The notes beneath the pieces were generated by a model that was given only the letters and a program-made list of their open reading frames with translations, made no database searches and was not told the origin of the DNA. Positions 11,976 through 31,149 of a stretch of 42,892 bases of DNA are shown piece after piece. The DNA comes from Candidatus Heimdallarchaeota archaeon (GTDB taxonomy: Archaea > Asgardarchaeota > Heimdallarchaeia > Hodarchaeales > Hodarchaeaceae): contig JBHLSH010000016.1 of assembly GCA_048881705.1 (NCBI GenBank), positions 1 through 42,892 of the forward strand, given 5' to 3'. The position numbers and the translations under genes are program-made. How positions within the stretch are numbered: position 1 is the stretch's first letter; every line of letters starts with the position of its first letter.

Positions 11976-12371
11976 ATGGTTAAAACAACACAATTAGTTT
12001 TCTCTGGTATTATAATTGCTATATCTGTGGGGGCAATTTCCTTACTATTGACGGAGTCATCTATACCCGTATTTACAGTAAGGGAAATAATGGAACACCC
12101 AAACTCCGAATCCTTTTTAGATCGAAAAATCCAGCTGATTGGTACTGTGGCTGATGTAAATAGAACGGGATTCTACATTTTAGACCCAGATGATCCTACA
12201 AATTTATCTCTAATGATCTACGTAAATTCGACTAATGTGGGAAAACCTAACGGGTTTGAACCGGGAAAAAATGTACTCGTTGAAGGTAAACTCATATCCA
12301 CGTCTGGTTTATGGCTATTTAGGGCCAATATGATTAGTACCAAGTGCCCCAGGGAGTATTCAAACAGTTAG
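11976..12371 (+). CDS. ccmE: Heme chaperone CcmE, CxxxY (System I*) variant
   Basis: N-terminal TM anchor, OB-fold pattern (IQLIGTV...PNGFEPGKNVLVEGKL), and C-terminal KCPREY in place of HxxxY. Confidence 0.88.
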   Translation: MVKTTQLVFSGIIIAISVGAISLLLTESSIPVFTVREIMEHPNSESFLDRKIQLIGTVADVNRTGFYILDPDDPTNLSLMIYVNSTNVGKPNGFEPGKNVLVEGKLISTSGLWLFRANMISTKCPREYSNS

Positions 12372-12455
12372 TCCGGACCATTAATAACCATCTCATCCTT
12401 CCTCAAACCGCAAACCAGTCCATATCTCTTCCAATTCAATCGAAAACGGATTAGG

Positions 12456-13136: not shown

Positions 13137-13158
13137 GGTCGTTCTAGATCCCTTCTAC

Positions 13159-13857
13159 TCAAGCAGATTTCTCCAAGAAAAAACCAAATTCAGATTTTTC
13201 TAATATCTTGGATATTTTTCCTTTTTCCAGGTATATCACTCTGTCACATAGCTTGGCTACGGTTCTAAAATCGTGAGAACAAATTATGACAGTTCTGTTG
13301 GACGGTCGATTGGTTATTAGATCAATCATGATTTTTCTGTTCTCGAAATCTAGTCCGGCAAAGGGTTCATCCAATAACAATAAACGTGGGTAGGTTGGAA
13401 TAATTACTCTTAAAATTTCAAGCTTTTTTGCCATACCAGTTGAAAGCTCATGAGTTGGACGATCAATATACAATCGCAACTTGTGATCGGAAATAAGTTT
13501 ATCTATTATCGAATCTGGATTCATCCCTCTTTTGTTCATCCTCATGAAAAACTCTAGATTTTCTCTTCCGCTTAAATCCTCATAAAAGAATGGGGTGCTA
13601 AGTAAAACACCAATATCTCTCTTGAGCAAATCTTGGTTTTCCGAAACACGCTTTCCGAAGAGTGATACTTGCCCATTAGTAGGCCTCATAAGAAGAGAGA
13701 TGATTTTAAGTAGAGTGCTTTTTCCTGCTCCATTGGGACCCAAAAATCCTATCGTTTCCCCCTCAGTAATAGAAAATGTTACGTCTTTGAGGGCATTGGA
13801 AAATCCAAAGGCCTTGTAAACGTGTGATACATTTACAGATTGAGCGTCCGTGATCAA
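13159..13857 (-). CDS. ccmA: ABC ATPase CcmA
   Basis: Walker A GPNGAGKST, signature LSTGM, Walker B LLLLDEPF, H-loop SHD. Directly upstream of ccmB. Confidence 0.88.
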   Translation of the reverse strand: MITDAQSVNVSHVYKAFGFSNALKDVTFSITEGETIGFLGPNGAGKSTLLKIISLLMRPTNGQVSLFGKRVSENQDLLKRDIGVLLSTPFFYEDLSGRENLEFFMRMNKRGMNPDSIIDKLISDHKLRLYIDRPTHELSTGMAKKLEILRVIIPTYPRLLLLDEPFAGLDFENRKIMIDLITNRPSNRTVIICSHDFRTVAKLCDRVIYLEKGKISKILEKSEFGFFLEKSA

Positions 13858-13935
13858 CGTGTTTTCTCCCGATTTCGCTGGTTTTCAGGTAGTCGAAGAG
13901 TCTACGCTTAAAATTCTAGAGGAATCGAGGCCTAA

Positions 13936-14100
13936 TTAGGCTCTTTCTTCAGATTCGAAGAGTCGTAATTCTTTCTGTAACTTATTCATTCTATTGTTTA
14001 TATAGAATATGTACACTAGAATTAAAATCCAGACAGCTGTTGAAACTAAAAACAATAAACTTAATTCAGAACCTAGTAAATCATCAATTATGGTGGCCAT
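13936..14100 (-). CDS. ccmD: CcmD-like small membrane protein (54 aa; absent from the ORF track)
   Basis: Hand translation gives MATIIDDLLGSELSLLFLVSTAVWILILVYIFYINNRMNKLQKELRLFESEERA. It has one TM with W..L..Y and a charged helical tail, and lies between ccmC and ccmA on the same strand. Confidence 0.8.
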   Translation of the reverse strand: MATIIDDLLGSELSLLFLVSTAVWILILVYIFYINNRMNKLQKELRLFESEERA

Positions 14101-14126
14101 AACGGTCTCACAATCCTTTTTCTTTG

Positions 14127-14834
14127 TTACATCTGATCTAGCTTTAACATTCTTATATTTTTTAACTTAAACTCGATTTCATTGGTAATAAATGTCAAGT
14201 ATACAAGGATCAACGTGATTATCCCAGCCACCAGGAAATTTGACATTAGGATCATCCCTACTCCTTCTCCAAGGGCGGTTTGCTGCGGTTCTGGATGGAG
14301 TGGCCCGACTGTATAATTAGACAGTAGTACTGAAGGAGATACGACTATTCCAAATATTGCTGTCAATAAAGCTCTTCTCTGAGGGTTCTGTTCTTCCAGC
14401 ATCCCGCGGAATATTAGTAGAGCGATGTATGCCAACCACATTATGAGAGTTGCCGTCTGACGAGGTTCCCATTGCCAAAAGTAACCCCATTCAGCGTATG
14501 ACCATAATATACCAGTAATTAGCGTAATGGCCCCCACAACAATGCCCGTCTGAGCTGCTGCCACCAATAAAAAGTCTGAACGGAACCCTATTTGTTTTTT
14601 CCTAACGGAGGTGTTAATTATGTAATAAAGCCCGCTAAGAAGTACAATGGCAAAACAGATGTATGTTGAGAATGCAAAAGGAACCATATAAAAGATCGGA
14701 TGTCCACTGACCGTGAATCCAGATGTAAAAGGTTTTACAACGATATAAACAAGGTAATAGTTGATTACCATGAAAAGAATAAGGATACCTAATAATAATG
14801 TTTTTTCCCGATTTCCGATATTAAATGAAATCAA
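14127..14834 (-). CDS. ccmC: Heme exporter/heme handling protein CcmC (variant)
   Basis: WWD motif WSYAEWGYFWQWEPRQTATL and second His (PLHP) are present. The usual YxHVP reads FYMVP. Confidence 0.88.
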   Translation of the reverse strand: MISFNIGNREKTLLLGILILFMVINYYLVYIVVKPFTSGFTVSGHPIFYMVPFAFSTYICFAIVLLSGLYYIINTSVRKKQIGFRSDFLLVAAAQTGIVVGAITLITGILWSYAEWGYFWQWEPRQTATLIMWLAYIALLIFRGMLEEQNPQRRALLTAIFGIVVSPSVLLSNYTVGPLHPEPQQTALGEGVGMILMSNFLVAGIITLILVYLTFITNEIEFKLKNIRMLKLDQM

Positions 14835-15212
14835 TAATCGATCTCCGGACTTCTTTTGTCGATTTGTAGACAGAAAGGATTGTTACATGATATCTAAAAA
14901 GAATGATGCTATATCAGAAACGATTGTTAATGTAGTTTAAATCTAGTGGAAGAATCAATATTCTATTTGCTAAAAATCCTGTCTGAAATCTGGCAATTCC
15001 TGTTTGGTCAATATTTCGCGCATTTAAATGTTAAAGTAATTGGGATTAAGTGAGTTTTGTAACCGACATACCTCCCAGTGCTTCTCGGGAGGGTTTTACA
15101 TCTGTAACTCGGGTTTACAATAGTTTAGAATTTTTATACTTTTGTATGTTTTTTTCGAACAAAATTAAAATAGTCAGAACTGGAACAAACTTTTGTCCTT
15201 TCTAAGACGAAA

Positions 15213-15234
15213 TTTACAATGTAAATATTGTAAA
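15213..15234. promoter_or_regulatory. Palindromic candidate operator TTTACA-N10-TGTAAA
   Basis: TTTACAATGTAAATATTGTAAA has 8-bp arms (TTTACAAT/ATTGTAAA) and lies in the divergent ccmC / EB_dh intergenic region. The same core recurs at 27794-27815. Confidence 0.5.
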
Positions 15235-15295
15235 CATATCTTTCAAGTTTAGGAAAGTCTTCTAATTCAAGAATAAGAACAATGGAGAAATTAAA

Positions 15296-16444
15296 TTGCG
15301 AAATACTAACCTAACAAAGCTTTTGGCCATTGTAGCATTCTCTACGCTAGTATTCGTCGTTTTTACCCAGAACCGTGCAAACATTGAGCAGGCAAACCCT
15401 ACTCTCACATCGTATAAGGTCACGGGTACCATTACCCTAGATGGGATGGCAAATGAAGCTTTCTGGACCGACGCAGATCAGCTAGAAATACTCAACATTG
15501 GCAATACTTTCAATTTAACCGTTATGTCTGTCCATAATGCAACGCATGTATTTCTGTTCTCAACGTGGAATGACGCTACGGAATCGAGCACCCGCAACGA
15601 TTGGATGTTTAACAGTACCCAGATGTGGGAAAATCTACAACAAAACGAGGATCGAATTACCTATTTCTGGTCAAATGCCTCATTAACACCTAAATGTGGG
15701 CATTATGTCTTCAGTCCAAATGCCTCCGCTGGCTTTCAGGGCGATGTATGGCATTGGAAGGCATCTCGAACCGCTCCTGCTGGTTGGGTTGACGATAAAT
15801 ATTTCGATGGTACCGGAAGACATTCTGATGCCAAAAGCTCTGGTGGATATCTGGAAAACTCTGCAATAGTACAAATGTTCGGTGTGAACACTTCGGGAGA
15901 GATCACAAATGTCCTCGGGAACTCAACTATTGTATACGCAAACGAATCATTTACTGACAGAGATCGACCCTTCTGGGATGCCCAGGGAAGTGTAATATCA
16001 TGGACCAACGGTGTAAACGATACGGCCGTCTCTGCAAATATTCCAGGATACTTGACAACGGTTCCAGTTGGAAGCCGTGGAAACGTCCTTGCAGAAGCTG
16101 TTTATAGCTCTGGCATGTGGAGTGTCGAAGAGGTTCGCAAGCTGGATACAGGAAACTATAAGGACGATATTAAGTTCGAAGAAGGTATGACCTACAACTT
16201 TTCGGTTGCCATTCATGACAATGGTGGCGGCGGTAGTCATAAAAGGCAGTCAGGTTTTGGATTTGCTGTTTCAGCCTCTGCTCCACCAACAACAACGACC
16301 ACGACCACAACCACCACGACCACCACGACCACAACCACAACCACAACCACTACGACCACTGGTCCCACTCCTGGCTTTATAATTGCTGGAACGGTTCTCG
16401 CGATTGCCACAATGGTCATAATAGCTAGAAGAAAGAGACAATAG
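15296..16444 (+). CDS. Exported EB_dh/DOMON-like heme-binding-family glycoprotein with Thr stalk and PGF-CTERM anchor (paralog 1)
   Basis: Signal-like N-terminus, TLDGMANEAFW, VHNATHVFLFSTWND, EDRI, DVWHWKASRT, DDKY, WSVEEVRKLDTG..DDIKF..G.TYNFSVAIHD. Ends with 24 Thr, then TPGF + TM + RRKRQ. Confidence 0.8.
   Translation: MRNTNLTKLLAIVAFSTLVFVVFTQNRANIEQANPTLTSYKVTGTITLDGMANEAFWTDADQLEILNIGNTFNLTVMSVHNATHVFLFSTWNDATESSTRNDWMFNSTQMWENLQQNEDRITYFWSNASLTPKCGHYVFSPNASAGFQGDVWHWKASRTAPAGWVDDKYFDGTGRHSDAKSSGGYLENSAIVQMFGVNTSGEITNVLGNSTIVYANESFTDRDRPFWDAQGSVISWTNGVNDTAVSANIPGYLTTVPVGSRGNVLAEAVYSSGMWSVEEVRKLDTGNYKDDIKFEEGMTYNFSVAIHDNGGGGSHKRQSGFGFAVSASAPPTTTTTTTTTTTTTTTTTTTTTTTTGPTPGFIIAGTVLAIATMVIIARRKRQ
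16289..16360 (+). repeat. ACN trinucleotide tract encoding 24 consecutive threonines
   Basis: Counted directly: 24 ACN codons of mixed synonymous types between CCA CCA and GGT. Confidence 0.95.
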
Positions 16445-16449
16445 TACTG

Positions 16450-16490
16450 TTCTCTCTTCTCCTCTCTTTTTTTTTGACTCTTTTTATTCT
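16450..16490 (+). terminator. Probable archaeal oligo-T terminator
   Basis: A pyrimidine tract ending in T9 (16467-16475), plus a further T5, directly after the stop at 16444. Confidence 0.55.
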
Positions 16491-16690
16491 AATTCATCTA
16501 AAGTGAAATACAAGGGAGTATAAGGCCTTCCAGAATTATTGGATATATATCTAGGGCTTCCATCCCTAACAGCGATTGGAATATCTTATCAATTCATTGG
16601 GACGAAAACTTGATATTTGATTTGTGCATTTTGTGGGGAGTGATATCGTAACTTCCAAAATCCACTGAAGAAATAGAGGGGTACCGAAGG

Positions 16691-17920
16691 TTGAAAATAG
16701 GTAATTTGGTTAGAATTTTGGTGATTTCGGGAACGTTTTTTCTAGTTTTCTTTCTTGTTTCCCTGGAAACAGCAACCGTTACTCAAAGCAGAAACCTAAT
16801 TTCTTATTATTTTCCGAGCAAGATTCTGTTGGATGGAAAAGCGGCGGAGGATTTTTGGTATAACGCGGATAAGTTGGAAGTTCGCAAATTTGATGGCACT
16901 AACATGAACCTGACAGTCATGACCGTCCATAATTCGACTCATCTCTTTTTGTTTTCAACGTGGACTGACGTTACGGAATCTAATACTTATAACGACTGGA
17001 TATTTAACAGTACCAAAATGTGGGAGAACTTAGGAGGAAACGAGGATCGGATAACCTTTTTCTGGTCAAATGAATCCAATTTCCCGAACTGTGCACATTA
17101 TACATTCAATCCCAATCCATCGCTTGGATTTCTCGGAGACGTATGGCATTGGAGGGCGTCCAGAACAGCACCCGGGGGCTGGACTGATGACAGATTCTTT
17201 GATGGTTTAGGCCGGCATTCCGATGCTAAAACGTTTGGCGGATATAAAGAGAATTCAGTGGTAGTACAAATGTTTGGTGTGAACAGCTCTGCAGAGATCA
17301 CAAGTGTCCTTGGGAACTCAACTACTGTATCGTCAAACGAATCATTCACTGATAGAGATCGGCCATTCTGGGATATCCAAGGTAGTGTCATTGCCTGGGT
17401 AAATGGTGTCAACACTACGAATATCGGCGCATCCATACCAGGATATTTAACAACGGTTCCAGTGGGAAGCCGTGGGGACGTCCTTGCAGGAGCTGTCTAC
17501 AGCTCTGGTATGTGGAGTGTCGAAGAAGTTCGCAGGCTGGACACGGGAAGCTATAAGGACGATATTAAGTTCGAAGAAGGTTTCACGTACAATTTCTCGG
17601 TCGCCATTCATGACAATGGTGGCGGCGGTAGTCACAAAAAGGAGGCAGGTTTCGGATTTACAGTTTCAGCATCTACCCCGCCAACAACCACGACCTCGAC
17701 TACTACCACCACTACAACCAACACGACAACGACCACCACTACTACACCAACAACTACGATTACAAGTACTACTAGAACCATGGATACCAAACGGGCCACC
17801 CCTTCAGCCGATTTAACTAGCTCCACCACTTCTATTTTGCCGCTGCTATCACCTGGTTTTATTTTACCAGCTTTGACGATTAATCTCGTGATTATAGTTA
17901 TCTACGTCCGAAGGAGATAA
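16691..17920 (+). CDS. Exported EB_dh/DOMON-like heme-binding-family glycoprotein with Thr stalk and PGF-CTERM anchor (paralog 2)
   Basis: Tandem duplicate of 15296..16444 at a 1395-nt offset, with the same motifs. Ends SPGF + TM + RRR. Confidence 0.8.
   Translation: MKIGNLVRILVISGTFFLVFFLVSLETATVTQSRNLISYYFPSKILLDGKAAEDFWYNADKLEVRKFDGTNMNLTVMTVHNSTHLFLFSTWTDVTESNTYNDWIFNSTKMWENLGGNEDRITFFWSNESNFPNCAHYTFNPNPSLGFLGDVWHWRASRTAPGGWTDDRFFDGLGRHSDAKTFGGYKENSVVVQMFGVNSSAEITSVLGNSTTVSSNESFTDRDRPFWDIQGSVIAWVNGVNTTNIGASIPGYLTTVPVGSRGDVLAGAVYSSGMWSVEEVRRLDTGSYKDDIKFEEGFTYNFSVAIHDNGGGGSHKKEAGFGFTVSASTPPTTTTSTTTTTTTNTTTTTTTTPTTTITSTTRTMDTKRATPSADLTSSTTSILPLLSPGFILPALTINLVIIVIYVRRR
17684..17779 (+). repeat. 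Thr-rich low-complexity linker
   Basis: Encodes TTTTSTTTTTTTNTTTTTTTTPTTTITSTTRT. Confidence 0.9.
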
Positions 17921-17967
17921 CTAGCAGGAGTTTTTATCAAACGATAATCAATACTGCCTGAAGAGAT

Positions 17968-19989
17968 TCATCCAAGCGACCTAGTTAGTCTCCTAGTTTT
18001 TGTAGCTATCAAGGGGATTAGACTTACAAGGAGCAAAATGACCCCTAGCCACAGAATGTGGATAAGAGGGATGTACCTAACCTGGATCGTTGCGCTATCG
18101 AAGATTCCAGTATCATCATTCTCAAAAACAAAATCTAGAACTAGGTAAATGTCATCAGGCAATTGTGTAATTATTTGGATCTTTTGGTCAACACCCCAAA
18201 TCGTATCGATTCTATAATACAGAACTCCTTCTGATATGATATCAGATCCAAGTTTTAGCTCATATTGGACTTCATATATTGATAGATATGGGCTATCGTT
18301 TGGAATGGTCTTATTGAAGTTTGAGACGGTGATTTCATAATTTGTGTCTAGAACAGTGACATTTGATCCGTCTTGAACATCGATTAGATCGGTTGAACGC
18401 AGTGTGCCGCTAGTGACGATGCCCAAAACGATTATAAGTAAGGAAAGGTGTAAGAGCGACTGGCTAGTTTTCTGAAATACATTTCCCGTTCTATGAATTA
18501 ACAAAGTTTCAGTTAAGTTCCATATCAGGCCAAAAAGGCCCAAAAGCATGAGAGGTAGGAAGAAATTAGCCACGTCGTTCCTAGTAATTAGTTTCAGGGC
18601 GTAAAAACCGATGCCAGCTAAAACTCCCACTACTAACAAACCTAACCTAAATTTTAGCCCGATATTACTGTAATATTTGCAGAAGAAGGAAAAGACAAGG
18701 AGAATCACTCCAAAACATACAAATATAGCTGTAAAATAGCTAGGACCAACAGAAATGCTCGGACCAAGTATTAAGGTTAGTTCAGGAATGAAATCGCTCA
18801 AAACATTATAAATAAAAGGTAAAAATATCCCTGTTATCATAACATACGTTCCCAAGATAATCGTCAGGTATGAAAGCTTAAGAAAAGTATCCTTATAGGT
18901 TGAAATAATTGATAGCTCATTGAAATTGAGATTGATATCCAAATTTGCTTTATTAATATATGCAAAAATATGCGGTAGAGTGAATGTTACAATGAGGACG
19001 ATCAGGATTATGAATGTATTTTCATCGGGCGCAAAGGTGTGCACACTCTCAAGAATACGGCTCCGTGTGATCAAGGTCGCCAATAGTACCCCTACGTATG
19101 ACATACATGTAAAGTAATATCCTAGAAAAGGGTTCTCCTTGTGTATTGAACTTCCGTGATAATAAATGGTAATAAACAGCCAGGGGATTAGTGACGATGT
19201 CTGTACTGGATCCCAACTCCAAAAACCTCCCCACCCAAGGGTAGTGTAAGCCCAATAGGCTCCCAATGCAACGCCAAGAGAAAGCAGCCACCAGGCCAAA
19301 GCAATCTGAAGCTCCGCGAAAGATTCAATTTTCATGATTAAAGGTCGTTGAATCTTTGAATCTTCCCGTAACAATGATATACGTGCCAGAGCAATTGCCA
19401 TTGGCACCAAACAGAATGAATACCCCATGAGAATAATCGGAGGATGAGTGATATTCCAGATATTCGTGAGAACTGGATTCAAACCAATGCCATCTGAGGG
19501 AGTAATAGTATTAAGCTTAAAGGGGTCGCTTATTAGAGTAAACAGCCACAAGATTACCATCTGGAAGGAAATCATAAGTGAAGCCCGATGGATTAAGGAC
19601 TCTTCTGAATCGTTTCTAAATACAAAACGGAATATCGTATAAGATAGGAGACTGAAAACCGCCCAAATAAAAAAGGATCCTGCGGTTCCAGACCAAATTG
19701 CCGCGATCCGCAGAAGAAAATCCATTCTTAAATTGACAAATGATGAAACGTAGGATAATCCATAATCCGGAACTTGCAGTAAAGCCACGAAATAGAAGAA
19801 AGATCCCGTGAACAGTATGAAACCAATAATCAGGCTTGCAAAGGCGGGTTCCTTTACCCTTTTCTTCAAAGGTTCCGTTAGGCCAGGAAATAATTGAAAA
19901 AGAAAATCCAGAAAAAGAAAGATCCCACCAAGAAGTAACAAAATTAGGCCAAAATCAAAGGAGATGATTCCAAAATCTAATAGAAACAT
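17968..19989 (-). CDS. ccmF: Cytochrome c synthetase CcmF
   Basis: WSGTAGSFFIW, GLNPVL..IWNITHPP, GAYWAYTTLGWGGFWSWDPVQTSSLIPW, YYHG and SVHTFA. Many TM segments. Confidence 0.92.
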   Translation of the reverse strand: MFLLDFGIISFDFGLILLLLGGIFLFLDFLFQLFPGLTEPLKKRVKEPAFASLIIGFILFTGSFFYFVALLQVPDYGLSYVSSFVNLRMDFLLRIAAIWSGTAGSFFIWAVFSLLSYTIFRFVFRNDSEESLIHRASLMISFQMVILWLFTLISDPFKLNTITPSDGIGLNPVLTNIWNITHPPIILMGYSFCLVPMAIALARISLLREDSKIQRPLIMKIESFAELQIALAWWLLSLGVALGAYWAYTTLGWGGFWSWDPVQTSSLIPWLFITIYYHGSSIHKENPFLGYYFTCMSYVGVLLATLITRSRILESVHTFAPDENTFIILIVLIVTFTLPHIFAYINKANLDINLNFNELSIISTYKDTFLKLSYLTIILGTYVMITGIFLPFIYNVLSDFIPELTLILGPSISVGPSYFTAIFVCFGVILLVFSFFCKYYSNIGLKFRLGLLVVGVLAGIGFYALKLITRNDVANFFLPLMLLGLFGLIWNLTETLLIHRTGNVFQKTSQSLLHLSLLIIVLGIVTSGTLRSTDLIDVQDGSNVTVLDTNYEITVSNFNKTIPNDSPYLSIYEVQYELKLGSDIISEGVLYYRIDTIWGVDQKIQIITQLPDDIYLVLDFVFENDDTGIFDSATIQVRYIPLIHILWLGVILLLVSLIPLIATKTRRLTRSLG

Positions 19990-21136: not shown

Positions 21137-21916
21137 TTAGGGTCGTTTTAACGCAAATCTGGCCAAAAGCATCAGAACTAGTATGCCTATGCTATATACG
21201 ATTTCCAGTATTAATTCTGATTCCCATATATTAACTTGAGGCTGACCTGGCACCTCGTAAGTAGTCCAATCACTGTGAGAGGTACTCTGGATTAACGGAC
21301 CAAAGTGGTTATCCCAGTAAGCAAACATTAGATTGAATCTGTCCCCTGGATGCAAGGAAACATCATATCCAGGAGAGTCGTTTGAATCAAGAGGTTTGGT
21401 TCCCTCCATAATTAACCCATCACCACTCGGATTAAGTTTTATACTTCCTTTTCCGTCATTGGTTCCATTTTCAAGGATATCTGCGACTGCAGGATTCCCC
21501 ATTCCTTGAAGAAAGAAATCTTCACCTCCAGGTTGATTATAAGACACAAATAAGGCATCATCTGGGGAAAACGAAAGGCCCATTGGTACTTTATCGCCAT
21601 TATTATCAAATTCCACCCCAAAGAAATCGTGTCCCCCGCTTTCTCCAAATAACTTTGGATCATCATCACTAACCTGAATTAGAATAAAAATGTGGCTCAG
21701 ATTGAATTTGATGGTAACGTCGATTGTGGTTCCATCTGCCATTTGTAAAATCCGTCTATCGCCACCTTCCCATTCTTCCTCTGTGATAATTCCGTCAATC
21801 ACTGGAAACTCCGAGCTCAGAGATTTCAGAAGGATTTTCGATCCGATTAAGAGATAAACAATTAGAACCAGAGGAATAAGGCTTTTTATCAATTTTTTTG
21901 GCCAAATTATCTTCAT
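21137..21916 (-). CDS. Membrane-anchored DOMON-like domain protein
   Basis: Signal-like N-terminus, PVIDGII..EEW, EFDNNGD..PMG, EGTKPL...D....PG..FNLMFAYWD...HS, and a C-terminal TM. ATGA overlap with the upstream LanC-like gene. Confidence 0.7.
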   Translation of the reverse strand: MKIIWPKKLIKSLIPLVLIVYLLIGSKILLKSLSSEFPVIDGIITEEEWEGGDRRILQMADGTTIDVTIKFNLSHIFILIQVSDDDPKLFGESGGHDFFGVEFDNNGDKVPMGLSFSPDDALFVSYNQPGGEDFFLQGMGNPAVADILENGTNDGKGSIKLNPSGDGLIMEGTKPLDSNDSPGYDVSLHPGDRFNLMFAYWDNHFGPLIQSTSHSDWTTYEVPGQPQVNIWESELILEIVYSIGILVLMLLARFALKRP

Positions 21917-23613
21917 ATGGCGTCTTTCCTTCGTAATGCCAGTATTGGGATTAGTAATAACATCGATACTGAAGCGAATCCAAGTAAGGAGAGGAGCAAT
22001 TGCTCATCGTTATCAATCTGCCCATTTACTGTTGTTTCTGAACTTTGATTATCAATATATATTTGGGGTAGCATTTCTCCGAACTCGGGAAGAGCAGAAC
22101 AATTTATGATTTCGGGATATTTCGGAGTTGCTTGTAAACTTTCGGCCACCTTCAAGAAATATAAAGCCACGCCTGCTGCTCCGCTATGGTACCCAAGGTG
22201 ATGACCATATTGCTTAAGATGGAATGGGTGACGAGTCGTCCCCGTAGCAACTGGAAAAAGGTAACCATCTTTTCGTAGCGAAACCAACCACTCTGCCGCC
22301 CCTAGCATCGCGTTTTTGAATTTTTCACATCCGAATGCGGAATAAGTCTCTGCAAAAAAACTTCCAATCCCTGCCGCTCCTGATGAATAGCCCGTGAAGT
22401 AGGTATTATAATCTGGTTCAGCCGTAGTTTTCGCCCATTTCAGACCTTGATCTGAATTATTGGCATGTCCGATTAACCAGCTTGCTGCATCAATTGCGCC
22501 TTCTGCATATTTCATATCAGCTGTGGTGTGGTATAATTCCAGTAAAAACTGACCTATCCCTGCAACTCCGCTATCTATACCAGCAATTGTATGGTACCTG
22601 GTTGAATTGGGATCTAACTCGGTTATATAGGTTGGACCACCATTTAGCCAGGTCCCGTTGATTTGTTTTGAAAGTAACCAATTTCCAATGAAGCTCGCTG
22701 CGTCAAGCCACTTTGAATCATTTGTTGAACGATAAAGAGATAATAGGAACGAGCCAATGCCTGCGTTTCCCCCTCCGTATCCCGTGAAAAAGGAGGTGTT
22801 AAAGGGAGCGAAATCAGACCATGGAATGCTCCATTCCTGTTGTTCGTCTGTACCAATCTTGCTAGCAAGTTTCGTTAGCCATTCGCCGGAACTAACTGCG
22901 ATATCTATCCAATGGGTGTTATTTAAAGTGACGCCAGCTTCTAGAAATACGTTGGCTATTCCTGTTACTCCATACGTAATGTCAGTCACGCCTTCGGAAC
23001 CAGAAAGGGTATAACTCCAGAAGGTATCATTGTCAGAGGAATTGTGAGCTACCGCCTCTAACGTAAGAAGAGAGTTTCGCAATGGCTCGTAATATGTTTG
23101 GTTGTTCGTAGATTTTAAAAGGTCTAGGAAGAAAAGAGCAATCCCCGCATTTCCATACTTCATCCCAATATAGGTTGTACTGTAATCCTCAGCACCATAC
23201 CAGTAAATTCCATTATCAGAGAGGTTCTGAGCATTTTGGATAAGGTAGTTACCAGCCCTCTCAGCGTATTTGAGATAACTCTGATTCTGTGTCGCATCAA
23301 ATAGAGTGATGAGGGTATCCGCCACACCTGCGGTCCCCCACCAGTATCCATAATAGAAATTATTCCAAGATCCCAGCCATCCTGGTGGAGGGCCGTCAGC
23401 GATCCTAGGCCATTTGACAAAATTGCTGTCCCCAATGGCCTCTCCAATCAATCCATTGGCTATTTCAATGGCGATCTGTTCAAGCTCCTGTGGGGAAAAC
23501 AATACAGTATAATGGGAAAAACTGATGGAACCCTTGAATTGCACGACCATTGAAGTACCGGTGATCAAGATAAGGAAGCTTACACCAAACCATTTGGTAT
23601 ATCTGTTTTTCAT
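21913..23613 (-). CDS. Exported, membrane-anchored LanC-like alpha/alpha-toroid protein lacking Zn-binding motifs
   Basis: Seven G-x-x-G repeats: WGTAG, YGNAG, YGVTG, GGNAG, SGVAG, SGAAG, SGAAG. N-terminal and C-terminal hydrophobic segments and many NxS/T sequons. I prefer the ATG at 23613; the ORF-track start at 23715 overlaps nrfD. Confidence 0.75.
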   Translation of the reverse strand: MKNRYTKWFGVSFLILITGTSMVVQFKGSISFSHYTVLFSPQELEQIAIEIANGLIGEAIGDSNFVKWPRIADGPPPGWLGSWNNFYYGYWWGTAGVADTLITLFDATQNQSYLKYAERAGNYLIQNAQNLSDNGIYWYGAEDYSTTYIGMKYGNAGIALFFLDLLKSTNNQTYYEPLRNSLLTLEAVAHNSSDNDTFWSYTLSGSEGVTDITYGVTGIANVFLEAGVTLNNTHWIDIAVSSGEWLTKLASKIGTDEQQEWSIPWSDFAPFNTSFFTGYGGGNAGIGSFLLSLYRSTNDSKWLDAASFIGNWLLSKQINGTWLNGGPTYITELDPNSTRYHTIAGIDSGVAGIGQFLLELYHTTADMKYAEGAIDAASWLIGHANNSDQGLKWAKTTAEPDYNTYFTGYSSGAAGIGSFFAETYSAFGCEKFKNAMLGAAEWLVSLRKDGYLFPVATGTTRHPFHLKQYGHHLGYHSGAAGVALYFLKVAESLQATPKYPEIINCSALPEFGEMLPQIYIDNQSSETTVNGQIDNDEQLLLSLLGFASVSMLLLIPILALRRKDAI

Positions 23614-23671
23614 CAATGTACCTAAATTCAATGTTAGATTTGAAAAAGCCTGGGAGCTTTTGGTAATGCGG

Positions 23672-25165
23672 TTATTGAGCTCCGTCCTCGAAACGGAATT
23701 CCGCCGGCCGCTCATCTTCTATTCTTTCTTTCTTGCCGAGAATCAGTTCACTGGAAATTTCCTCTTCTCTTTGTTTCTGAGTCTCTGAAAGCGGAAAAGT
23801 TTGATCAGCAAATGATGTGGGATACCTCAAATCTGCCTCCTTCCACAATTTGCGGTTTTTTTCATCTTCGAGGATTTCCCATAGCGGAGCAATGGGGAAG
23901 AACTTCATCGCGATTGCAATTCCAAACACCAATGCGGTAAATGCACCCAAAGTAATGGCAGCTTCAACCCAAGTGGGGATATAGGTCCCCCAAGGTCCCG
24001 CTATCCAAGGTCGCGCCATAGCTGGAACGATAATCACATACCGTTTCATCCACATCCCTATATTGACGAGAATCGAGGCAATGAAAATGCCAGTGATACT
24101 ACGGGCTCTTGTAAAGAAGAAAATGTTTCCTGGAATTACTATCCCACCCACGATTGAGAACCAGAAAAGTATCGCATAATCTCCATAGAAAAGGGCATTA
24201 AGAAGCTCTGCCTCTTCGGTTGGAGTAGAGTATAAAGCTCCAATGTATTCTGAAAACGTGAAGTAAGCGTATCCAAGGCTTAAGACAACCATAATTACAC
24301 CCATATTTCGGAAGTGCCGTTCTGTCAGAATTTTCTTATATTCAGGATAGATGACCCTTATGATGAACATGGCGGTAATTAACGCTGCAGATCCAGAATA
24401 TAGTGCTCCAATAACGAAATAAGGTCCAAAGATTGTACTACGCCAACCTGGCCGTAACATGACTCCTCCTACTGTATAAGAAACCACGGTGTGAACTGTA
24501 ACCATGACAGGAATGAGAATCCAAGCCATGAACCCAATTCCTCTGTTTAAACGCTTATGTTGAGCTTCAGTCCCTTGCCAACCCAAAGCCAGAAACCTCC
24601 ACAGCCACCGTTTGAGCCAAAAAGCATCCGTACTGAGATGATCACGCATCAAGGCGAAATCTGGGATAAGGGCGATATAAAGATAAACCAAGCTTCCTAC
24701 CAAATACATGGAAAGCGCTAGAAAGTCCCAAAGGATGGGGGAATTAAACTTGCCAATCGTTATGACATATAGAATTCTGTCAATGCGGCCAATATCAATC
24801 AAAACCATTGCTGCTCCAATTAGTAACCCAAAAGCTGTTAGCAACTCACCGATCCTAGTTATCGGGTGACGCCATTGGGCATCCGTAACACGCAATACTG
24901 CAGAAATAAATGTCCCCGCGTGAGAGATTCCGATAAAGAACACAAAATTGGTGATATAAACCCCCCAAGAAACCTTGTCACGTAATCCAGTAACTATCAA
25001 ACCATTAATAAATTGATTTAGATAGGCGTAGGCCGCAAACAATAGGATTAGGAGCATCAATATGAGAGTGACGAAATATAATCTTCCCGTTTTCATCACG
25101 GGATGTAGTAATATTTGCGCGCTTTTGTTATCATCAAGGAATGTGTTTCGTTTTTCAGTCTGCAT
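23672..25165 (-). CDS. nrfD: NrfD/PsrC-family quinol-interacting membrane subunit, ActC-like
   Basis: WGVYITNFVFFIGISHAGTFISA, WRHPITRIGE, DIGR, SPILWDFLALSMY...LIPDFALMRD, HTVVS and GALYSG. ATG at 25165 follows GAGGT. Confidence 0.9.
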   Translation of the reverse strand: MQTEKRNTFLDDNKSAQILLHPVMKTGRLYFVTLILMLLILLFAAYAYLNQFINGLIVTGLRDKVSWGVYITNFVFFIGISHAGTFISAVLRVTDAQWRHPITRIGELLTAFGLLIGAAMVLIDIGRIDRILYVITIGKFNSPILWDFLALSMYLVGSLVYLYIALIPDFALMRDHLSTDAFWLKRWLWRFLALGWQGTEAQHKRLNRGIGFMAWILIPVMVTVHTVVSYTVGGVMLRPGWRSTIFGPYFVIGALYSGSAALITAMFIIRVIYPEYKKILTERHFRNMGVIMVVLSLGYAYFTFSEYIGALYSTPTEEAELLNALFYGDYAILFWFSIVGGIVIPGNIFFFTRARSITGIFIASILVNIGMWMKRYVIIVPAMARPWIAGPWGTYIPTWVEAAITLGAFTALVFGIAIAMKFFPIAPLWEILEDEKNRKLWKEADLRYPTSFADQTFPLSETQKQREEEISSELILGKKERIEDERPAEFRFEDGAQ

Positions 25166-25180
25166 CGGGAAATACCTCAA

Positions 25181-26029
25181 TCAGCGTTTCGGTAGGTAAA
25201 AAACACGGGGTTTTGTACCCAATTCCTCTTGTAAACGATAGCCCATTCTTTCTTTGACCGTGTCTGAAAGAGTAACTGTTTGAAAGGTGCCATTTGTTAC
25301 TAAATCGTGATTTAGATTTCCAAAATAGAGCGCACCGCCAGGACACGCTCCTACGCAGGCAGGAAGCTGACCGTCCTTGGCAGAATGGGAACAAAAATCA
25401 CATTTCTCAACAACTCCTCTTTCGTGAGGCAGCGGATAGTGTGGCGAATATGCCCCCAACTGCTTGGAATATTCAATTTCCTCTTCTCGGGTGCCAAACC
25501 ACGGCTCTGGTTCACCCCAATTGAAGTATCGTGCATTGTAGGGACAGGCCGCGATGCACATCCGGCAACCTATGCATATCCTATGATCTATTAGCACAAG
25601 TCCTTCCTCATTTCTAAATGTAGCCCCAGTGGGGCATACCCACATACATGGGGGGCTTTCACAATGCATGCATGGTCTAGGTAGGAAATATTTACCTGCG
25701 ACAGCGTTATCTTGTTTTTCGTAAAGCTGTATCCATGCTTGGGGTTCTGGTGGTTCCGCGGGCTCCCCTGATTCCTTGAATCGTTTGGGGACATAATGCA
25801 TGATGGCGCAGGCTTCTAGACAAGAGCTGATCTCTCTATCTTGACAGCCATCACATTTTTCCAAATCAATCATCATAACCCATTGGGGAGGAATCTCCTC
25901 TGCATGAGTTGCATTTTGACGACCTAGAGACTGCTGGTTGAAGTTTAATTTAGATGTAACGGCAAGAGTTCCTCCAACCGCTCCTATTGCGCCTAATAGT
26001 TTGAGAAAACTTCTTCGTGACGTCGGCAT
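25181..26029 (-). CDS. Tat-exported multi-[4Fe-4S] protein (NrfC/DsrO/ActB2-like)
   Basis: Twin-arginine SRRSFLK. Cys motifs CDGC-x7-CLEAC, CMHCESPPCMWVCP, CIGCRMCIAACPY and EKCDFC...PACVGACP. Confidence 0.92.
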   Translation of the reverse strand: MPTSRRSFLKLLGAIGAVGGTLAVTSKLNFNQQSLGRQNATHAEEIPPQWVMMIDLEKCDGCQDREISSCLEACAIMHYVPKRFKESGEPAEPPEPQAWIQLYEKQDNAVAGKYFLPRPCMHCESPPCMWVCPTGATFRNEEGLVLIDHRICIGCRMCIAACPYNARYFNWGEPEPWFGTREEEIEYSKQLGAYSPHYPLPHERGVVEKCDFCSHSAKDGQLPACVGACPGGALYFGNLNHDLVTNGTFQTVTLSDTVKERMGYRLQEELGTKPRVFYLPKR

Positions 26030-26056
26030 GAACCTTATTTCCTATTATGGTTTAAT

Positions 26057-27769
26057 CTAATTCACCTGTTCCTTTCCAGATCTTATTCTAACCGCGTTAT
26101 ACAGTACATATCCATAAACCAAAAAAACGCCTGCTACCAGAGTTAATGCTCCAGCCGATACAGCTCCGAAGATTCTTGGATCATCAAACCAAATGAATTC
26201 TTCGACATGCTCTTCAGGAATCAGGTTGATAGTAAAATATTCTTCGTGATTTGCAAGAATTTTCGTTCCAACTGTTTGGCCTGGAAATTCGATTACAAAG
26301 TTGATTAGACCAGCTACATTTTCCAAATCGTAAACAAATTTAACAGTGCTCTCAGTATTAGTTATGTTAGAGCCTAGTAGCATTCTTCCGAAGGTAAAGT
26401 TTAAATACATGTTAATTCTCCTTCCATCCATCAAGTTCGGATCTCCACCCTCTAGAACTTGGAACCTCGCCTCAAGAATTATTCTAGTTCCCTGCGGAAT
26501 CTCCGTTCCAGCTGGAATCGATGTTCCAGTAGTATCTGTCGCATTAACCGTCATATCAATATTTAAGGTTTCAAATGGCGATACTAAGAGATCGTATGTA
26601 ATAGAATGCTCTGGGTGCATGCTGACAAAATCATCAGCTGTCCTATTATGAGAGAGAAAGAAACCATACGTTGAATTGATCGAAAAGTCGTGATCTAATG
26701 GAATGTCCCCCGACTTTAACGGGAATACGAATTCGATAATTGTATGGGTCGCATTTTCGGTTCCCCCACTAGCTTTAATGTCAAAAGTTCCATTGGCCGA
26801 GATATCGGGGTGGTGTTCACCTGGCTCCCCGTAATCATCACTCATATGAACTCCAGTAGCATTGACAAACCCAATAATAATATTGGATCCATTTTTATGA
26901 GCGTTCTTCGGTCCAAATCCTATCCCCAACCAACCACTATGCCCTGGAGGTGAAATCAGACCGATAAACATATCAGTATTGTTGTGTTCCAAGTAAACAT
27001 TGATTTCAGTCAATGGGTCAACCATCGATGATTCATACTCATTTAGACCGATAATGCCATCGACAGAAACAATCGGATTTGTAACCAAAGGCATTATGAT
27101 AGATGACGTTTCCAGCTTAATGGTGATCAGGTTGGAATGGTCGGGATGATACGAGCCGAAATTATCAGCCGTCGGATGATTGGCCAGATGAAAGCCGTTT
27201 TCTTGGCCCAAAATCCAAGAATGGTCATAACTGTCCCCTGATGAAAGAGGAAAAACAAACTCAATCACCGTGTGTGTTTCGTTTTCTGTACCTGCCGCTG
27301 CCTTGATATCGTTCGTCCCTCCAGAGTCAATATCCGAAAAATGTTGCGTTCCCAATCCGTAGTGATCCTCGATCGCAAATGTTCCATTATCCGATACATA
27401 TCCCATTATAATATTCGCGCCGTCCATTGGAACGCTTTTTGGTCCCAATCCGATGCCGACCCAGCCCTTTGTTGGGCTTTCCAAGGCAACAAACAAATCA
27501 GTACCGTTGTGGCTAAACGAGACAATGATCCCTGTGAGCTCGTGTGAATCTTCCAAGGTTACTGGATATTCACCTTGCGAGACAATCCCATCTATTACAA
27601 CCTCAGTTGGAATAACGTAAGGAACAGATACGTATCCAGTCAAAGGGGGAAATCCGTGGTTAGGGCCCGCCAGCGTTGCAGAATTTGGTTTTCCAATTAT
27701 TACAACTAAAAAAATAAAAAACAGGAAAAAGGTACTTTTCCGTTTGGGTGGTAAATTAGGTTGACGCAT
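26057..27769 (-). CDS. Exported protein with two tandem DOMON domains, an Ig-like domain and a C-terminal TM
   Basis: Two repeats of IDG...GW.GIG.GP.......N.I.G....ED.Y...H..D...G..DI.A..GTEN.THT.IEFVFPL.SGD...H. Domain 1 has PMDG and YHPDH. Confidence 0.85.
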   Translation of the reverse strand: MRQPNLPPKRKSTFFLFFIFLVVIIGKPNSATLAGPNHGFPPLTGYVSVPYVIPTEVVIDGIVSQGEYPVTLEDSHELTGIIVSFSHNGTDLFVALESPTKGWVGIGLGPKSVPMDGANIIMGYVSDNGTFAIEDHYGLGTQHFSDIDSGGTNDIKAAAGTENETHTVIEFVFPLSSGDSYDHSWILGQENGFHLANHPTADNFGSYHPDHSNLITIKLETSSIIMPLVTNPIVSVDGIIGLNEYESSMVDPLTEINVYLEHNNTDMFIGLISPPGHSGWLGIGFGPKNAHKNGSNIIIGFVNATGVHMSDDYGEPGEHHPDISANGTFDIKASGGTENATHTIIEFVFPLKSGDIPLDHDFSINSTYGFFLSHNRTADDFVSMHPEHSITYDLLVSPFETLNIDMTVNATDTTGTSIPAGTEIPQGTRIILEARFQVLEGGDPNLMDGRRINMYLNFTFGRMLLGSNITNTESTVKFVYDLENVAGLINFVIEFPGQTVGTKILANHEEYFTINLIPEEHVEEFIWFDDPRIFGAVSAGALTLVAGVFLVYGYVLYNAVRIRSGKEQVN

Positions 27770-27793
27770 GAAGATTAAACCAGCTTACACAGG

Positions 27794-27815
27794 ATTACAG
27801 TGTTTTCATTGTAAT
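27794..27815. promoter_or_regulatory. Palindromic candidate operator ATTACA-N10-TGTAAT
   Basis: ATTACAGTGTTTTCATTGTAAT lies about 25-45 nt upstream of the tandem-DOMON start (27769). Same core and spacing as 15213-15234. Confidence 0.5.
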
Positions 27816-27870
27816 AACTAAAATTCGGTATTCTCTGGGCTTTTATAAGAGTTTCCTTGGAAAGCTACGT

Positions 27871-27919
27871 TTTACACATTCACAATGGTTTATATAATAA
27901 TTATTCGTGAATGTGTGAA
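27871..27919. promoter_or_regulatory. TATA box flanked by a 13-bp inverted repeat
   Basis: Arms TTTACACATTCAC (27871-27883) and GTGAATGTGTGAA (27907-27919), one mismatch. They enclose TTTATATA (27889-27896), which reads TATATAAA on the minus strand facing the DOMON operon. Confidence 0.55.
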
Positions 27920-28354
27920 TATTCCTTACGAGGAGAATACGGAGGGTTTATTGGCTAATGTTCGGGAATGATCTACAAGAATCTGAAAAATTCTAGGTAT
28001 TCAAATTTGCCCAAAAATACTCCTTCATATATAAAACCAATTTTCGACGTAATAAAACGCGAAAGGCATATTCCCTACCAGTGTTTGGATGAAACCCCAA
28101 CGTTTGTAGATTATCCATCCGCAGGTTGTGATATTTCGATTCGAGTTTTGATGAATGGTTTCGACCCTAATTCTTGTTTGAGGAAATGATTACGAGAATA
28201 GATAAAGTCAGATTTTTAAGGGGAAGATAACCCTACGTGCGTCCAGAATTCCTTTCACATAAGATGGTTATCAAAGATTATATGGAATGAGTTAGATAAT
28301 AATACCCCATCAAGGAGCGGAAACACAAGATGGTGGTAATCAGAGGACGTAATA

Positions 28355-28678
28355 ATGAAAAAAATTTCTACCGATGAACTAAAGAAAAAAATGGATAATG
28401 GCGACAAATTTAAGCTTGTTTTTACCCTGGGAGATTGGTATTTCAAAGCAATGCACATCCCTGGCTCTATTTCCGTACATAATCCTGAAGATGCTCCCCA
28501 ATACCTTAGCCAAGATGACGAAATCGTGGTATATTGTTCCAACCCAGAGTGTACGGCGAGCCAAGTCGCATACATCTCATTGGAAAAAGCAGGATTCAAA
28601 AACTTACGACGTTTTGCGGGGGGTTTGGAAGCGTGGCAAAAAGCGGGGTATGACCTCGAAGGTGAAATGGTGGATTAA
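28355..28678 (+). CDS. Single-domain rhodanese-like sulfurtransferase
   Basis: HIPGSI, IVVYCSNPEC (active-site Cys loop), and GFKNLRRFAGGLEAW. Confidence 0.88.
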   Translation: MKKISTDELKKKMDNGDKFKLVFTLGDWYFKAMHIPGSISVHNPEDAPQYLSQDDEIVVYCSNPECTASQVAYISLEKAGFKNLRRFAGGLEAWQKAGYDLEGEMVD

Positions 28679-28814
28679 TTGGATCGACCAGAGCGCTTTC
28701 AAGTTTGAGCTTAATGATTAATCCATTATCCCAATTAATACGCCTTAATACGTCTAATCTGGGGGAGCCAAATTCGAATGCTACTAAAAATTGATTAAGA
28801 GGGAAGAGAACCTA

Positions 28815-29453
28815 TTATACTGACGTAATAGATCTGAATTTACGATCCAGTGGAAAAGCGATAGCTAATGCAACCACTGGTAAAGCTAAGACGGCTACCA
28901 GAACGAAAGCTATGGCAAATATGAGTTCACTTAAGGTCGCCATCTCCTTAAAGGGAGGGGGGCCAATAGGATTGCCTACAGTAAAATAACCTTTCATTCC
29001 TGCACCAAAATGCCCAGGACAGGAGCAAAAGAAACTAACGTACATGTTGTCTTTGGGTGTGGTCCATGTTATAGAGCCGACCATCCCTTTATCGGGTCCT
29101 CCAAAGTCTTCATCGGTTACAGTAGATAAATCAGTTTTACCTATGACGAGATCCGTACTGATGGCACCCAGAACAGCGATTTCGGGGGTAATCGTTCTTC
29201 CATTAGTTGCTATTATCAGGTTATGAAAGTGATTTTCAACGGGGTTCCAAAAATAAATAGTATATGTAGTATCAGGGAGTAAGTTCAATTGAGTAACACT
29301 GAACTGATTTTCAGGTAAGGCACGAATTTGTATGGAAGTATTCTCGTTCACGCCAACAATTGTGAACGGCGAAAAACCGAAAAAAGTAATTAAGAATAGA
29401 AATATACCTATTGTTAAGATATTATACCCTTTTCTCAATTTAACTAACCTCAT
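28815..29453 (-). CDS. Membrane-anchored type-1 blue copper protein (auracyanin/azurin-like cupredoxin)
   Basis: His in HFHNL and ligand loop FFCSCPGHFGAGMKG (Cys, His, Met). Hydrophobic N- and C-termini. Confidence 0.85.
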   Translation of the reverse strand: MRLVKLRKGYNILTIGIFLFLITFFGFSPFTIVGVNENTSIQIRALPENQFSVTQLNLLPDTTYTIYFWNPVENHFHNLIIATNGRTITPEIAVLGAISTDLVIGKTDLSTVTDEDFGGPDKGMVGSITWTTPKDNMYVSFFCSCPGHFGAGMKGYFTVGNPIGPPPFKEMATLSELIFAIAFVLVAVLALPVVALAIAFPLDRKFRSITSV

Positions 29454-30684: not shown

Positions 30685-31149
30685 GTGCAAGAAATGTCAC
30701 CCAAGCAAAAGGACCGGATCAAAAAGATATTGAAGTCCGTTTATTTCTATTCTTTGACCACAAGTTGGAAGGACATGCCTCAAACAACTATTGTGCTGCC
30801 GGGGATAACAGAAGATTGGAAAATATTAATTATATCGCATAAAAAAAGGAAAAAAGTACAAAATATTCGGAATAATCCAAACGTCTGGCTGATAGCAGAC
30901 AAAACAGGTCTCTTTAGGATTCCCCGTGTAATTTACATCAAGGCAACGGCAGAGATTTGTAATTTAACAACAGAAAAGTTCAATGAATTTGCTTCACTTC
31001 ACAGCTGGTTCTCTAGAAGGTTAATTCGCCGTCTGGCGCGGGATGAGATCAAAGAATCTGTGTTAATCGAGATTACTCCCTCAAAATTCACAACTGTTGG
31101 AATTTACGGCAAAGTAACGGAAACAGTTTCTTTTAGGGCACCGAGTTGA
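30685..31149 (+). CDS. Pyridoxamine 5'-phosphate oxidase-like (split-barrel flavin-binding) protein
   Basis: RKKVQNIRNNPNVWL, IKATAEI and VLIEITPSK. Confidence 0.7.
   Translation: MQEMSPKQKDRIKKILKSVYFYSLTTSWKDMPQTTIVLPGITEDWKILIISHKKRKKVQNIRNNPNVWLIADKTGLFRIPRVIYIKATAEICNLTTEKFNEFASLHSWFSRRLIRRLARDEIKESVLIEITPSKFTTVGIYGKVTETVSFRAPS

Follow-up and report, generated by a model that had tools for sequence, protein, structure and literature searches.

An archaeal FeS-NrfD gene module with a conserved DOMON partner, a predicted variant of the quinol dehydrogenase modules, in a Heimdallarchaeia genome

How electrons pass from quinol to the terminal oxidase in the archaea most closely related to eukaryotes is an open question, because most of the aerobic Asgard genomes searched show no cytochrome bc1; among 400 Asgard genomes, cytochrome b was found in 6 and COX1 in 24. 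A locus that bears on this question was found on contig JBHLSH010000016.1 of a Candidatus Heimdallarchaeota archaeon (assembly GCA_048881705.1), in the stretch of 42,892 nucleotides that was analyzed here as a whole (positions 1 to 42,892 of the forward strand, referred to as the window). A tightly packed operon of five co-oriented genes runs on the minus strand from 27769 to 21137 and encodes a tandem-DOMON protein, an iron-sulfur (Fe-S) protein with a twin-arginine translocation (Tat) signal, an NrfD-family membrane protein, a LanC-like protein and a DOMON-like protein, and a cupredoxin gene lies close by (Table 1). A previous sequence-only reading had taken this run for a minimal module resembling alternative complex III (ACIII), with DOMON proteins in place of c-type cytochromes. 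As far as sequence comparison can tell, the locus encodes an FeS-NrfD quinol module in a variant that is conserved among archaea and has a DOMON partner with conserved predicted heme ligands. No published description of it was found: the literature search returned no account combining DOMON, NrfD and archaea and nothing joining NrfD with the word stem Heimdallarchae, and the literature joining DOMON with NrfD concerned oral nitrate metabolism only.

When the NrfD protein was compared with all solved structures, the only matches were the ActC chains of ACIII (6f0k_C from Rhodothermus, 6lod_C, 8k9e_C and 6btm_C), with E-values ranging from 2.2e-64 for 6f0k_C to 5.4e-51. No other structure in the PDB, PsrC included, reached E = 0.1. 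Residues 24-436 aligned to ActC 34-451, consistent with an ActC-type NrfD, which has ten transmembrane helices and an outer-face quinol pocket. The quinol-pocket and proton-path residues of Rhodothermus ActC were taken as named in the structure paper (PMC5928083) and mapped through the alignment. The pocket residues W82, I86, F89, D169 and V250 were retained, and so were the proton-path residues H97, T100, S103, R114, R119, E122, Y176, D191, R196, D197, H247 and R395; NrfD W72, I76, F79, D152, H230, V233 and R380 correspond to ActC W82, I86, F89, D169, H247, V250 and R395, respectively. Two positions were substituted, His139 by Asp129 and Glu394 by Lys379. Asp was found at the His139 position in all but one of 94 tabulated relatives, including bacterial genes in ActC-ActD-ActE-ActF-like contexts, and Asp129 therefore reads as a trait of the subfamily and not as decay. 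The NCBIfam DsrP model gave 105.9 bits against a cut-off of 350, and QrcD (6.7e-11) was also far under its cut-off. These findings agree with the earlier description of the protein as ActC-like, and the subunit probably has a quinol site and a proton path.

A tree of 96 NrfD relatives, of the kind that had been proposed for placing the protein, put the window sequence inside a small, well-supported Asgard clade. The archaeal DOMON-linked sequences lay near ACIII-context and Chloroflexota sequences. They were separate from a large clade of bacterial sequences that have MopB-like and multiheme cytochrome genes as neighbors. Because the tree was unrooted and its base unresolved, no claim is made as to who donated the module.

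The Fe-S protein carries a twin-arginine motif at its N-terminus and 16 cysteines arranged in four complete groups. All 16 cysteines and the twin-arginine motif were invariant or nearly so across 12 archaeal orthologues. Because all of the cysteines in the four complete groups are conserved, four [4Fe-4S] clusters are indicated. The best NCBIfam model was DsrO (4.2e-55, 186.7 bits, just below the cut-off of 200), and the closest solved relative was PsrB (2vpw_B, 2.2e-28), followed by the C-terminus of ActB (6f0k_B, 5.9e-22); the protein is thus nearer to DsrO/NrfC/PsrB than to ActB. Neither the MopB-like (ActB1) domain nor the [3Fe-4S] motif was present in its 282 residues. The Fe-S and NrfD genes abut, as a Tat-exported ferredoxin with four [4Fe-4S] clusters adjoins a cofactor-less NrfD protein in NrfCD-type modules, which are known quinol dehydrogenases (PMC8076601). 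No score exceeded the equivalog cut-offs for DsrO or DsrP of DsrMKJOP, and no Dsr gene, the DsrMKJ partners included, was found among the open reading frames (ORFs) of the window that were scanned. Weak NCBIfam similarity of the module to QrcC and QrcD was also detected.

The 570-aa protein consists of a signal/anchor helix, a first domain (D1, residues ~47-226), a second domain (D2, ~247-402), an immunoglobulin (Ig)-like domain (404-517) and a C-terminal transmembrane anchor (531-569), with 13 N-glycosylation sequons and no cysteine. The Pfam DOMON score was 89 bits against a cut-off of 32.7, and the second domain also matched CDH-cyt. An AlphaFold2 model of the full-length protein (pLDDT confidence score of 84) showed two DOMON sandwiches, the Ig-like domain and the C-terminal helix; a separate model of D1 reached 92. 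In a fold search the whole model gave generic multi-Ig matches only, and a DOMON-family sequence profile run against the PDB matched the Ig-like domain only. The structural neighbors of the D1 model were CBM9 modules, NxrC, the CDH cytochrome domain, the DBH DOMON domain, EbdC and the pyranose dehydrogenase heme-b domain. Since these neighbors include both CBM9 and heme-b domains, the fold of D1 alone would not discriminate sugar from heme, and it is the conservation of the Met/His pair that can do so. In 35 DOMON partners, comprising Asgard, Thermoproteota and Thermoplasmatota relatives, M115 and H208 were each retained in 34, and a third histidine, H87, was retained in 32. The spacing of H87, M115 and H208 parallels that of H54, M90 and H174 in plant CYBDOM, where M90 and H174 were predicted by modelling to be the ligands of the DOMON heme (PMC10784544). 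D1 is accordingly predicted to hold heme b through Met115 and His208. In D2, H385 was invariant and the Met was retained in six orthologues. The Met/His heme-b ligands that had been ascribed to the DOMON domains in general are thus upheld in D1, the remaining domains being considered below.

To judge whether this gene arrangement is real and shared, the locus was compared with other genomes. In another genome of the genus (G001) a near-identical locus was found, with 81-93% protein identity and unchanged gene order, and a contig from an independent sediment metagenome spanned 24008-29255 with zero differences. These two observations rule out an assembly chimera, and the locus is not an assembly artefact. 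The closest named relatives were labelled Asgard (Thorarchaeota at 93% identity and Hodarchaeales at about 70%). Species-representative genomes were then scanned for relatives of the NrfD protein, yielding 80 loci. The bacterial relatives adjoin c-type cytochromes, in ACIII-like ActC-D-E-F orders, in split sets of MopB-like, FeS and penta- or tetraheme genes, and in FeS-NrfD-monoheme sets in Chloroflexota. A DOMON gene adjoining FeS-NrfD with no CxxCH nearby was found among the 80 loci in archaea only (Thermofilaceae, Bathyarchaeia, two Thermoplasmatota and Asgard), and the DOMON gene is the only constant neighbor of FeS-NrfD in archaea. In two Nitrososphaerota loci FeS-NrfD is followed by a Big_1-domain protein, which in one of them is preceded by a 239-aa protein without a family; an EB_dh protein also follows in one. 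The NrfD gene was present in 11 of the 400 Asgard genomes, in 8 of the 12 genomes of one family and in 2 of the 22 of the window's own genus. The order DOMON-FeS-NrfD held in all Asgard loci with enough upstream flank (the window, G001, G026, G034, G083, G081 and G086, and two loci each in G397 and G085), so that the synteny foreseen by the sequence-only reading is conserved in several archaeal phyla. The operons of another family (f5) have neither the LanC-like nor the 259-aa gene and carry instead TatA, TatC and a 430-445-aa protein of no assigned function. Because of this, the DOMON-FeS-NrfD trio is considered to be the conserved core, and the LanC-like toroid and the 259-aa protein appear to be lineage-specific accessories.

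Comparison with known systems showed that the module resembles ACIII only in part. It shares with ActABCDEF (6f0k, 6btm, 6lod and 8k9e) a full-length ActC-like NrfD with the quinol-pocket and proton-path residues largely retained, an Fe-S subunit homologous to the C-terminal half of ActB, and an auracyanin-like cupredoxin nearby. In contrast, it has four full Cys groups where ActB combines a MopB-like domain with an Fe-S domain of one [3Fe-4S] and three [4Fe-4S] clusters, and a DOMON protein as the predicted exit partner. No pentaheme ActA or monoheme ActE was found, CxxCH being absent from every ORF of the window, and neither a second NrfD-like protein (ActF) nor a two-helix ActD, the NrfD match being the only one in the genome. 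An adjacent 325-aa membrane protein was considered as a hidden ActF or ActD and rejected (hhalign probability of 5.6%). Because ActA, ActB1, ActD, ActE and ActF are all missing, the module is not an ACIII by its defining features; the ActC-like character of the NrfD subunit, described earlier, stands. None of the 3,464 ActB in a published survey was archaeal (PMC10100899). With NrfBCD, DsrJOP (of DsrMKJOP) and QrcABCD the module shares a Tat-exported four-[4Fe-4S] ferredoxin, a cofactor-less NrfD and a small protein that holds, or here is predicted to hold, heme; the putative heme partner is, however, a DOMON protein (b-type, non-covalent) instead of a CxxCH cytochrome, none of the catalytic partners of those systems is at the locus, and the NrfD scores are far under the DsrP and QrcD cut-offs. 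With the heme-b DOMON domains of CDH and CYBDOM it shares the fold, the Pfam DOMON and CDH-cyt match and the Met-to-His spacing. The heme of those proteins hands its electrons to iron or an external copper protein, but they are eukaryotic, and they receive electrons from a flavin domain or cytochrome b561 where an Fe-S/NrfD quinol module is the proposed source here. In the SoxLN-CbsAB complex of Sulfolobus, CbsA (cytochrome b558/566) is a glycosylated surface b-type cytochrome of the EB_dh/DOMON superfamily that replaces the c-type cytochrome of a quinol-oxidizing complex. The EB_dh neighbors of the locus give weak matches to CbsA; the core there is Rieske/cytochrome b, whereas here it is FeS plus NrfD, and the search of the genome yielded no cytochrome b.

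Table 1. Coordinates of the five-gene operon and of the two neighboring genes in the window
Feature	Position	Strand	Remarks
Tandem-DOMON surface protein	26057..27769	-	570 aa; Pfam DOMON 3.5e-25, CDH-cyt 2.3e-6
Tat-exported ferredoxin-like Fe-S subunit	25181..26029	-	282 aa; Fer4_11 1.2e-26, TAT_signal match
ActC-like NrfD-family integral membrane subunit	23672..25180	-	502 aa; Pfam NrfD 3e-33
LanC-like toroid	21913..23715	-	600 aa; Pfam LANC_like 8e-27
Divergent DOMON-superfamily protein	21137..21916	-	259 aa; no Pfam match; hhalign 99.3% probability
Membrane-anchored type-1 cupredoxin, auracyanin-like	28815..29453	-	212 aa; PDB matches to auracyanins
Single-domain rhodanese	28355..28678	+	107 aa; PF00581 4.5e-13; conserved in G001

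The tight co-oriented run itself is present as it had been described: a 27-nt gap follows the first gene, the next genes abut, and the last two overlap by 4 nt, the start of the 259-aa gene overlapping the stop of the LanC-like gene. If the LanC-like ORF is taken to begin at its first ATG, it extends 44 nt into the NrfD gene, and its true start is probably an internal Met at 23613. The extracytoplasmic proteins of the locus have many N-glycosylation sequons and a hydrophobic helix at both the N- and the C-terminus. The LanC-like protein is an (alpha/alpha) toroid with N- and C-terminal transmembrane helices and 14 sequons; it has no LanC zinc site (Cys/Cys/His), as only 2 cysteines occur in its 600 residues and neither is in the LanC motif. 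Its gene was found in G001 at 85% identity. The 259-aa protein, for which 76 relatives were found, has a signal anchor and a C-terminal transmembrane helix, and its family aligned with that of the DOMON partner in hhalign (99.3% probability, E-value of 2.7e-20), which identifies it, by profile comparison, as a genuine but divergent DOMON-superfamily domain.

The cupredoxin matched auracyanin B (1ov8_A, 5.3e-7), a Roseiflexus-type blue copper protein (6kol_A, 6.1e-7) and auracyanin A (0.015). The predicted copper ligands H77, C141, H146 and M151 are all covered by the alignment to 1ov8_A and 6kol_A, and form a type-1 set in an azurin-like C-x4-H-x4-M loop on a membrane-tethered protein with transmembrane helices at 15-33 and 177-195. 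The loop, the upstream His-Asn and the membrane tether are shared with auracyanins A and B of Chloroflexus and Roseiflexus, in support of the earlier comparison with auracyanin; the differences are an identity of only ~20-25%, an extra cysteine in the loop, a C-terminal transmembrane anchor and a partner complex that is not ACIII. Auracyanin is the named electron acceptor of ACIII, and the cupredoxin of the locus is a likely electron acceptor as well. It is conserved in G001 and is the sole plastocyanin-type match in the genome; cupredoxins also adjoin the module in two other loci (L014 and L063), one from Nitrosopumilales and one from Bathyarchaeia.

The respiratory equipment of the source genome was then surveyed. 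The molybdopterin family PF00384 had no match in the 91%-complete genome, in keeping with the lack of a molybdopterin catalytic subunit first noticed at the locus. Cytochrome b, cytochrome bd, a second NrfD and a second plastocyanin-type protein were likewise not found in the genome. NuoD is encoded, as is one heme-copper oxidase operon (COX2-COX1-COX3) on contig C94. This operon (locus L095, 1003-10071) is flanked by two EB_dh proteins of 312 and 300 aa, a LanC-like protein and a helix-turn-helix regulator, and the EB_dh proteins may be electron donors to the oxidase. COX1 was present in 10 of the 11 Asgard genomes with the module compared to 14 of the 389 without it; the module-bearing genomes are related to one another and count as a few lineages, not as 11 separate events.

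With modest confidence, we consider it probable that the module is a quinol:DOMON-heme oxidoreductase that feeds the cupredoxin or a heme-copper oxidase. NrfBCD, DsrJOP, QrcABCD and the ActABC core have a common logic, in which a cofactor-less quinol-binding NrfD, a wire of clusters and a small heme protein are joined (PMC8076601). By the same logic, the ActC-like NrfD, the Tat-exported four-[4Fe-4S] protein and the anchored DOMON protein would form a three-subunit core on the outer face of the cytoplasmic membrane. Quinol would be oxidized at the outer-face site of NrfD, and the electrons would pass through the four clusters to heme b at Met115/His208 of D1 and perhaps onward to D2. They would then exit to a high-potential carrier, for which the auracyanin-like cupredoxin or EB_dh-type heme proteins are the best candidates, and the final acceptor would be the oxidase encoded on C94. 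With the ActC proton-path residues retained, the oxidation of quinol may also translocate charge or protons. The kinship with ActC, the auracyanin-like neighbor, the EB_dh gene in the cox operon and the co-occurrence with COX1 make quinol oxidation the most likely direction, with a high-potential carrier and the oxidase receiving the electrons. A wider proposal goes further, namely that the module is a cytochrome-c-free and Mo-free archaeal analogue of complex III, a proton-translocating quinol:heme-b-DOMON/cupredoxin oxidoreductase common to Asgard, Thermoproteota and Thermoplasmatota, whose NrfD lineage stands beside, and possibly basal to, bacterial ActC and which links the quinol pool to the heme-copper oxidase in Heimdall-type Asgard without bc1; this is put forward tentatively and is doubtful as a whole.

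Several findings weigh against the proposed quinol:DOMON-heme oxidoreductase. CBM9 sugar-binding modules ranked top among the structural matches of D1, and DOMON folds also bind sugars. In D2 the Met column holds a Lys (K292, next to His291) here and in the two nearest relatives of the protein. In the 259-aa protein the Met-equivalent M112 is Met in 20 and His in 6 of 34 relatives, but the distal His is not conserved, and because of this its heme binding is doubtful. ACIII has a [3Fe-4S] cluster, in contrast to the four low-potential [4Fe-4S] clusters here. The cupredoxin, placed about 1 kb from the operon in the sequence-only reading, does lie there, upstream of the operon, with the loop that was quoted, but the interval holds the rhodanese gene, which is divergent from the operon promoter; because this plus-strand gene intervenes, the cupredoxin is a separate transcription unit and not part of the operon. 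Seven COX1-bearing genomes of the same genus have no module, so that the oxidase does not depend on it. Complementarity between the module and cytochrome b among the COX1 genomes was also considered and was not clean, as the module is present in 10, cytochrome b in 4 (both in one) and neither in 11. In the search for a quinone pathway MqnA was not found and a MenA-like match was below its cut-off, and the source genome is 90.9% complete with 7.5% contamination. Finally, a hexaheme cytochrome c (446 aa, six CxxCH) is encoded on contig C91, unlinked to the module. It is the only multiheme ORF of the genome. A separately encoded multiheme cytochrome, considered at the outset as a possible real partner, thus does exist; the absence of a CxxCH protein from the locus itself stood.

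The same findings bear on three other explanations. The hexaheme cytochrome, which exists together with its own CcmF and CcmE, could be the true partner of FeS-NrfD if the DOMON domains were sugar-binding or structural surface modules without a redox role. The rank of CBM9 among the D1 neighbors would fit this, as would the many conserved Asp and the lacking distal His of the 259-aa paralogue. However, the Met/His pair was found in 34 of 35 partners across phyla, the DOMON gene is the one neighbor that FeS-NrfD keeps throughout the archaea, and the hexaheme gene is unlinked, and we regard a non-redox role as highly improbable. An electron flow in the opposite direction, in which the module would take electrons from a periplasmic or external donor, such as reduced cupredoxin, Fe(II) or a reduced heme protein, and reduce quinone in the manner of QrcABCD or HybAB, is suggested by the fact that NrfD-type modules run in both directions (PMC8076601). 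The low-potential type of the four clusters and the weak similarity to QrcC and QrcD point the same way. In contrast, the NrfD protein is nearer to ActC, a quinol oxidizer, than to QrcD, and the module co-occurs with an O2 reductase. Moreover, the heme b of DOMON domains and type-1 copper are high-potential centers, and transfer of electrons from them to quinone would be uphill. Reverse flow is thus very unlikely.

A conduit to the cell surface is also unlikely, if less so. Quinol electrons would in that case leave through the exposed DOMON heme or hemes for surface Fe(III), Mn(IV), chelates or humics, and the module would be a ferric or metal reductase and not an oxidase feeder. CYBDOM proteins with a DOMON domain are ferric reductases (PMC10784544), the extracytoplasmic subunits are all rich in glycosylation sites and anchored by terminal transmembrane helices, the module lies within a larger island that also contains Ccm genes and encodes EB_dh surface proteins, and one genome (G397) has the module with no COX1 match. 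Nevertheless, COX1 accompanies the module in the 10 other genomes, an auracyanin-like carrier is adjacent, one or two hemes on a short tether do not amount to a long-range conduit, and there is no multiheme wire at the locus. The quinol-to-surface conduit of heme-b DOMON domains originally envisaged therefore keeps its conserved Met/His ligand pair, but its acceptor looks more like a cupredoxin or a heme-copper oxidase than the surface.

If the quinol:DOMON-heme oxidoreductase is confirmed, FeS-NrfD with a heme-b DOMON partner would be a new wiring of a known redox building block, and DOMON cytochromes, used in eukaryotic enzymes, would have a use in the respiration of prokaryotes as well. A concrete and expressible candidate for the missing quinol-to-oxidase step would then also be at hand. 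The findings further suggest that modules of the ActC type are far more ancient than ACIII, or more mobile.

Further features were noted around the operon and elsewhere. A TTACA-N10-TGTAA palindrome lies at 27790-27815, upstream of the DOMON gene start (27769). Both this palindrome and a TTATAAAA box further upstream are conserved between this genome and G001, within an otherwise diverged stretch of the intergenic region. Genes for PNPOx-like proteins (flavin mononucleotide-binding split barrels) occur at 30685-31149 (+) near the module and, in G397, directly upstream of the DOMON gene (L106, 3078-4849). A third DOMON domain of the genome is located within a 1502-aa ORF on contig C89 (G000:C89:13663-14016).

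Upstream of the operon, the region 11976-19989 encodes CcmE/B/A/C, two EB_dh proteins with one Cys each, and CcmF, and none of these genes contains CxxCH. On contig C91 (L094, 2539-8983), genes for an (alpha/alpha)6 toroid, another CcmF (741 aa) and another CcmE come after the hexaheme cytochrome c gene, so that the genome has two CcmF-centered islands. LanC-like or (alpha/alpha)6 toroids without zinc ligands recur beside genes for extracytoplasmic heme proteins in this genome and in G085. They were found in the window (21913-23715), in L095 on C94 (2035-3678), in L094 on C91 (3967-6330) and in L112/L047 (469-2115), with DOMON, EB_dh, hexaheme c and CcmF/CcmE genes as neighbors. The toroids may have a role in the maturation or anchoring of heme proteins. 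In bacterial loci with a relative of the NrfD protein (Calditrichota, Ignavibacteriota, KSB1, Rokubacteria and others; L031, L059, L069, L070 and L071), EB_dh proteins are encoded upstream of pentaheme-MopB-like-FeS-NrfD clusters, and some of these EB_dh proteins contain 7 CxxCH.

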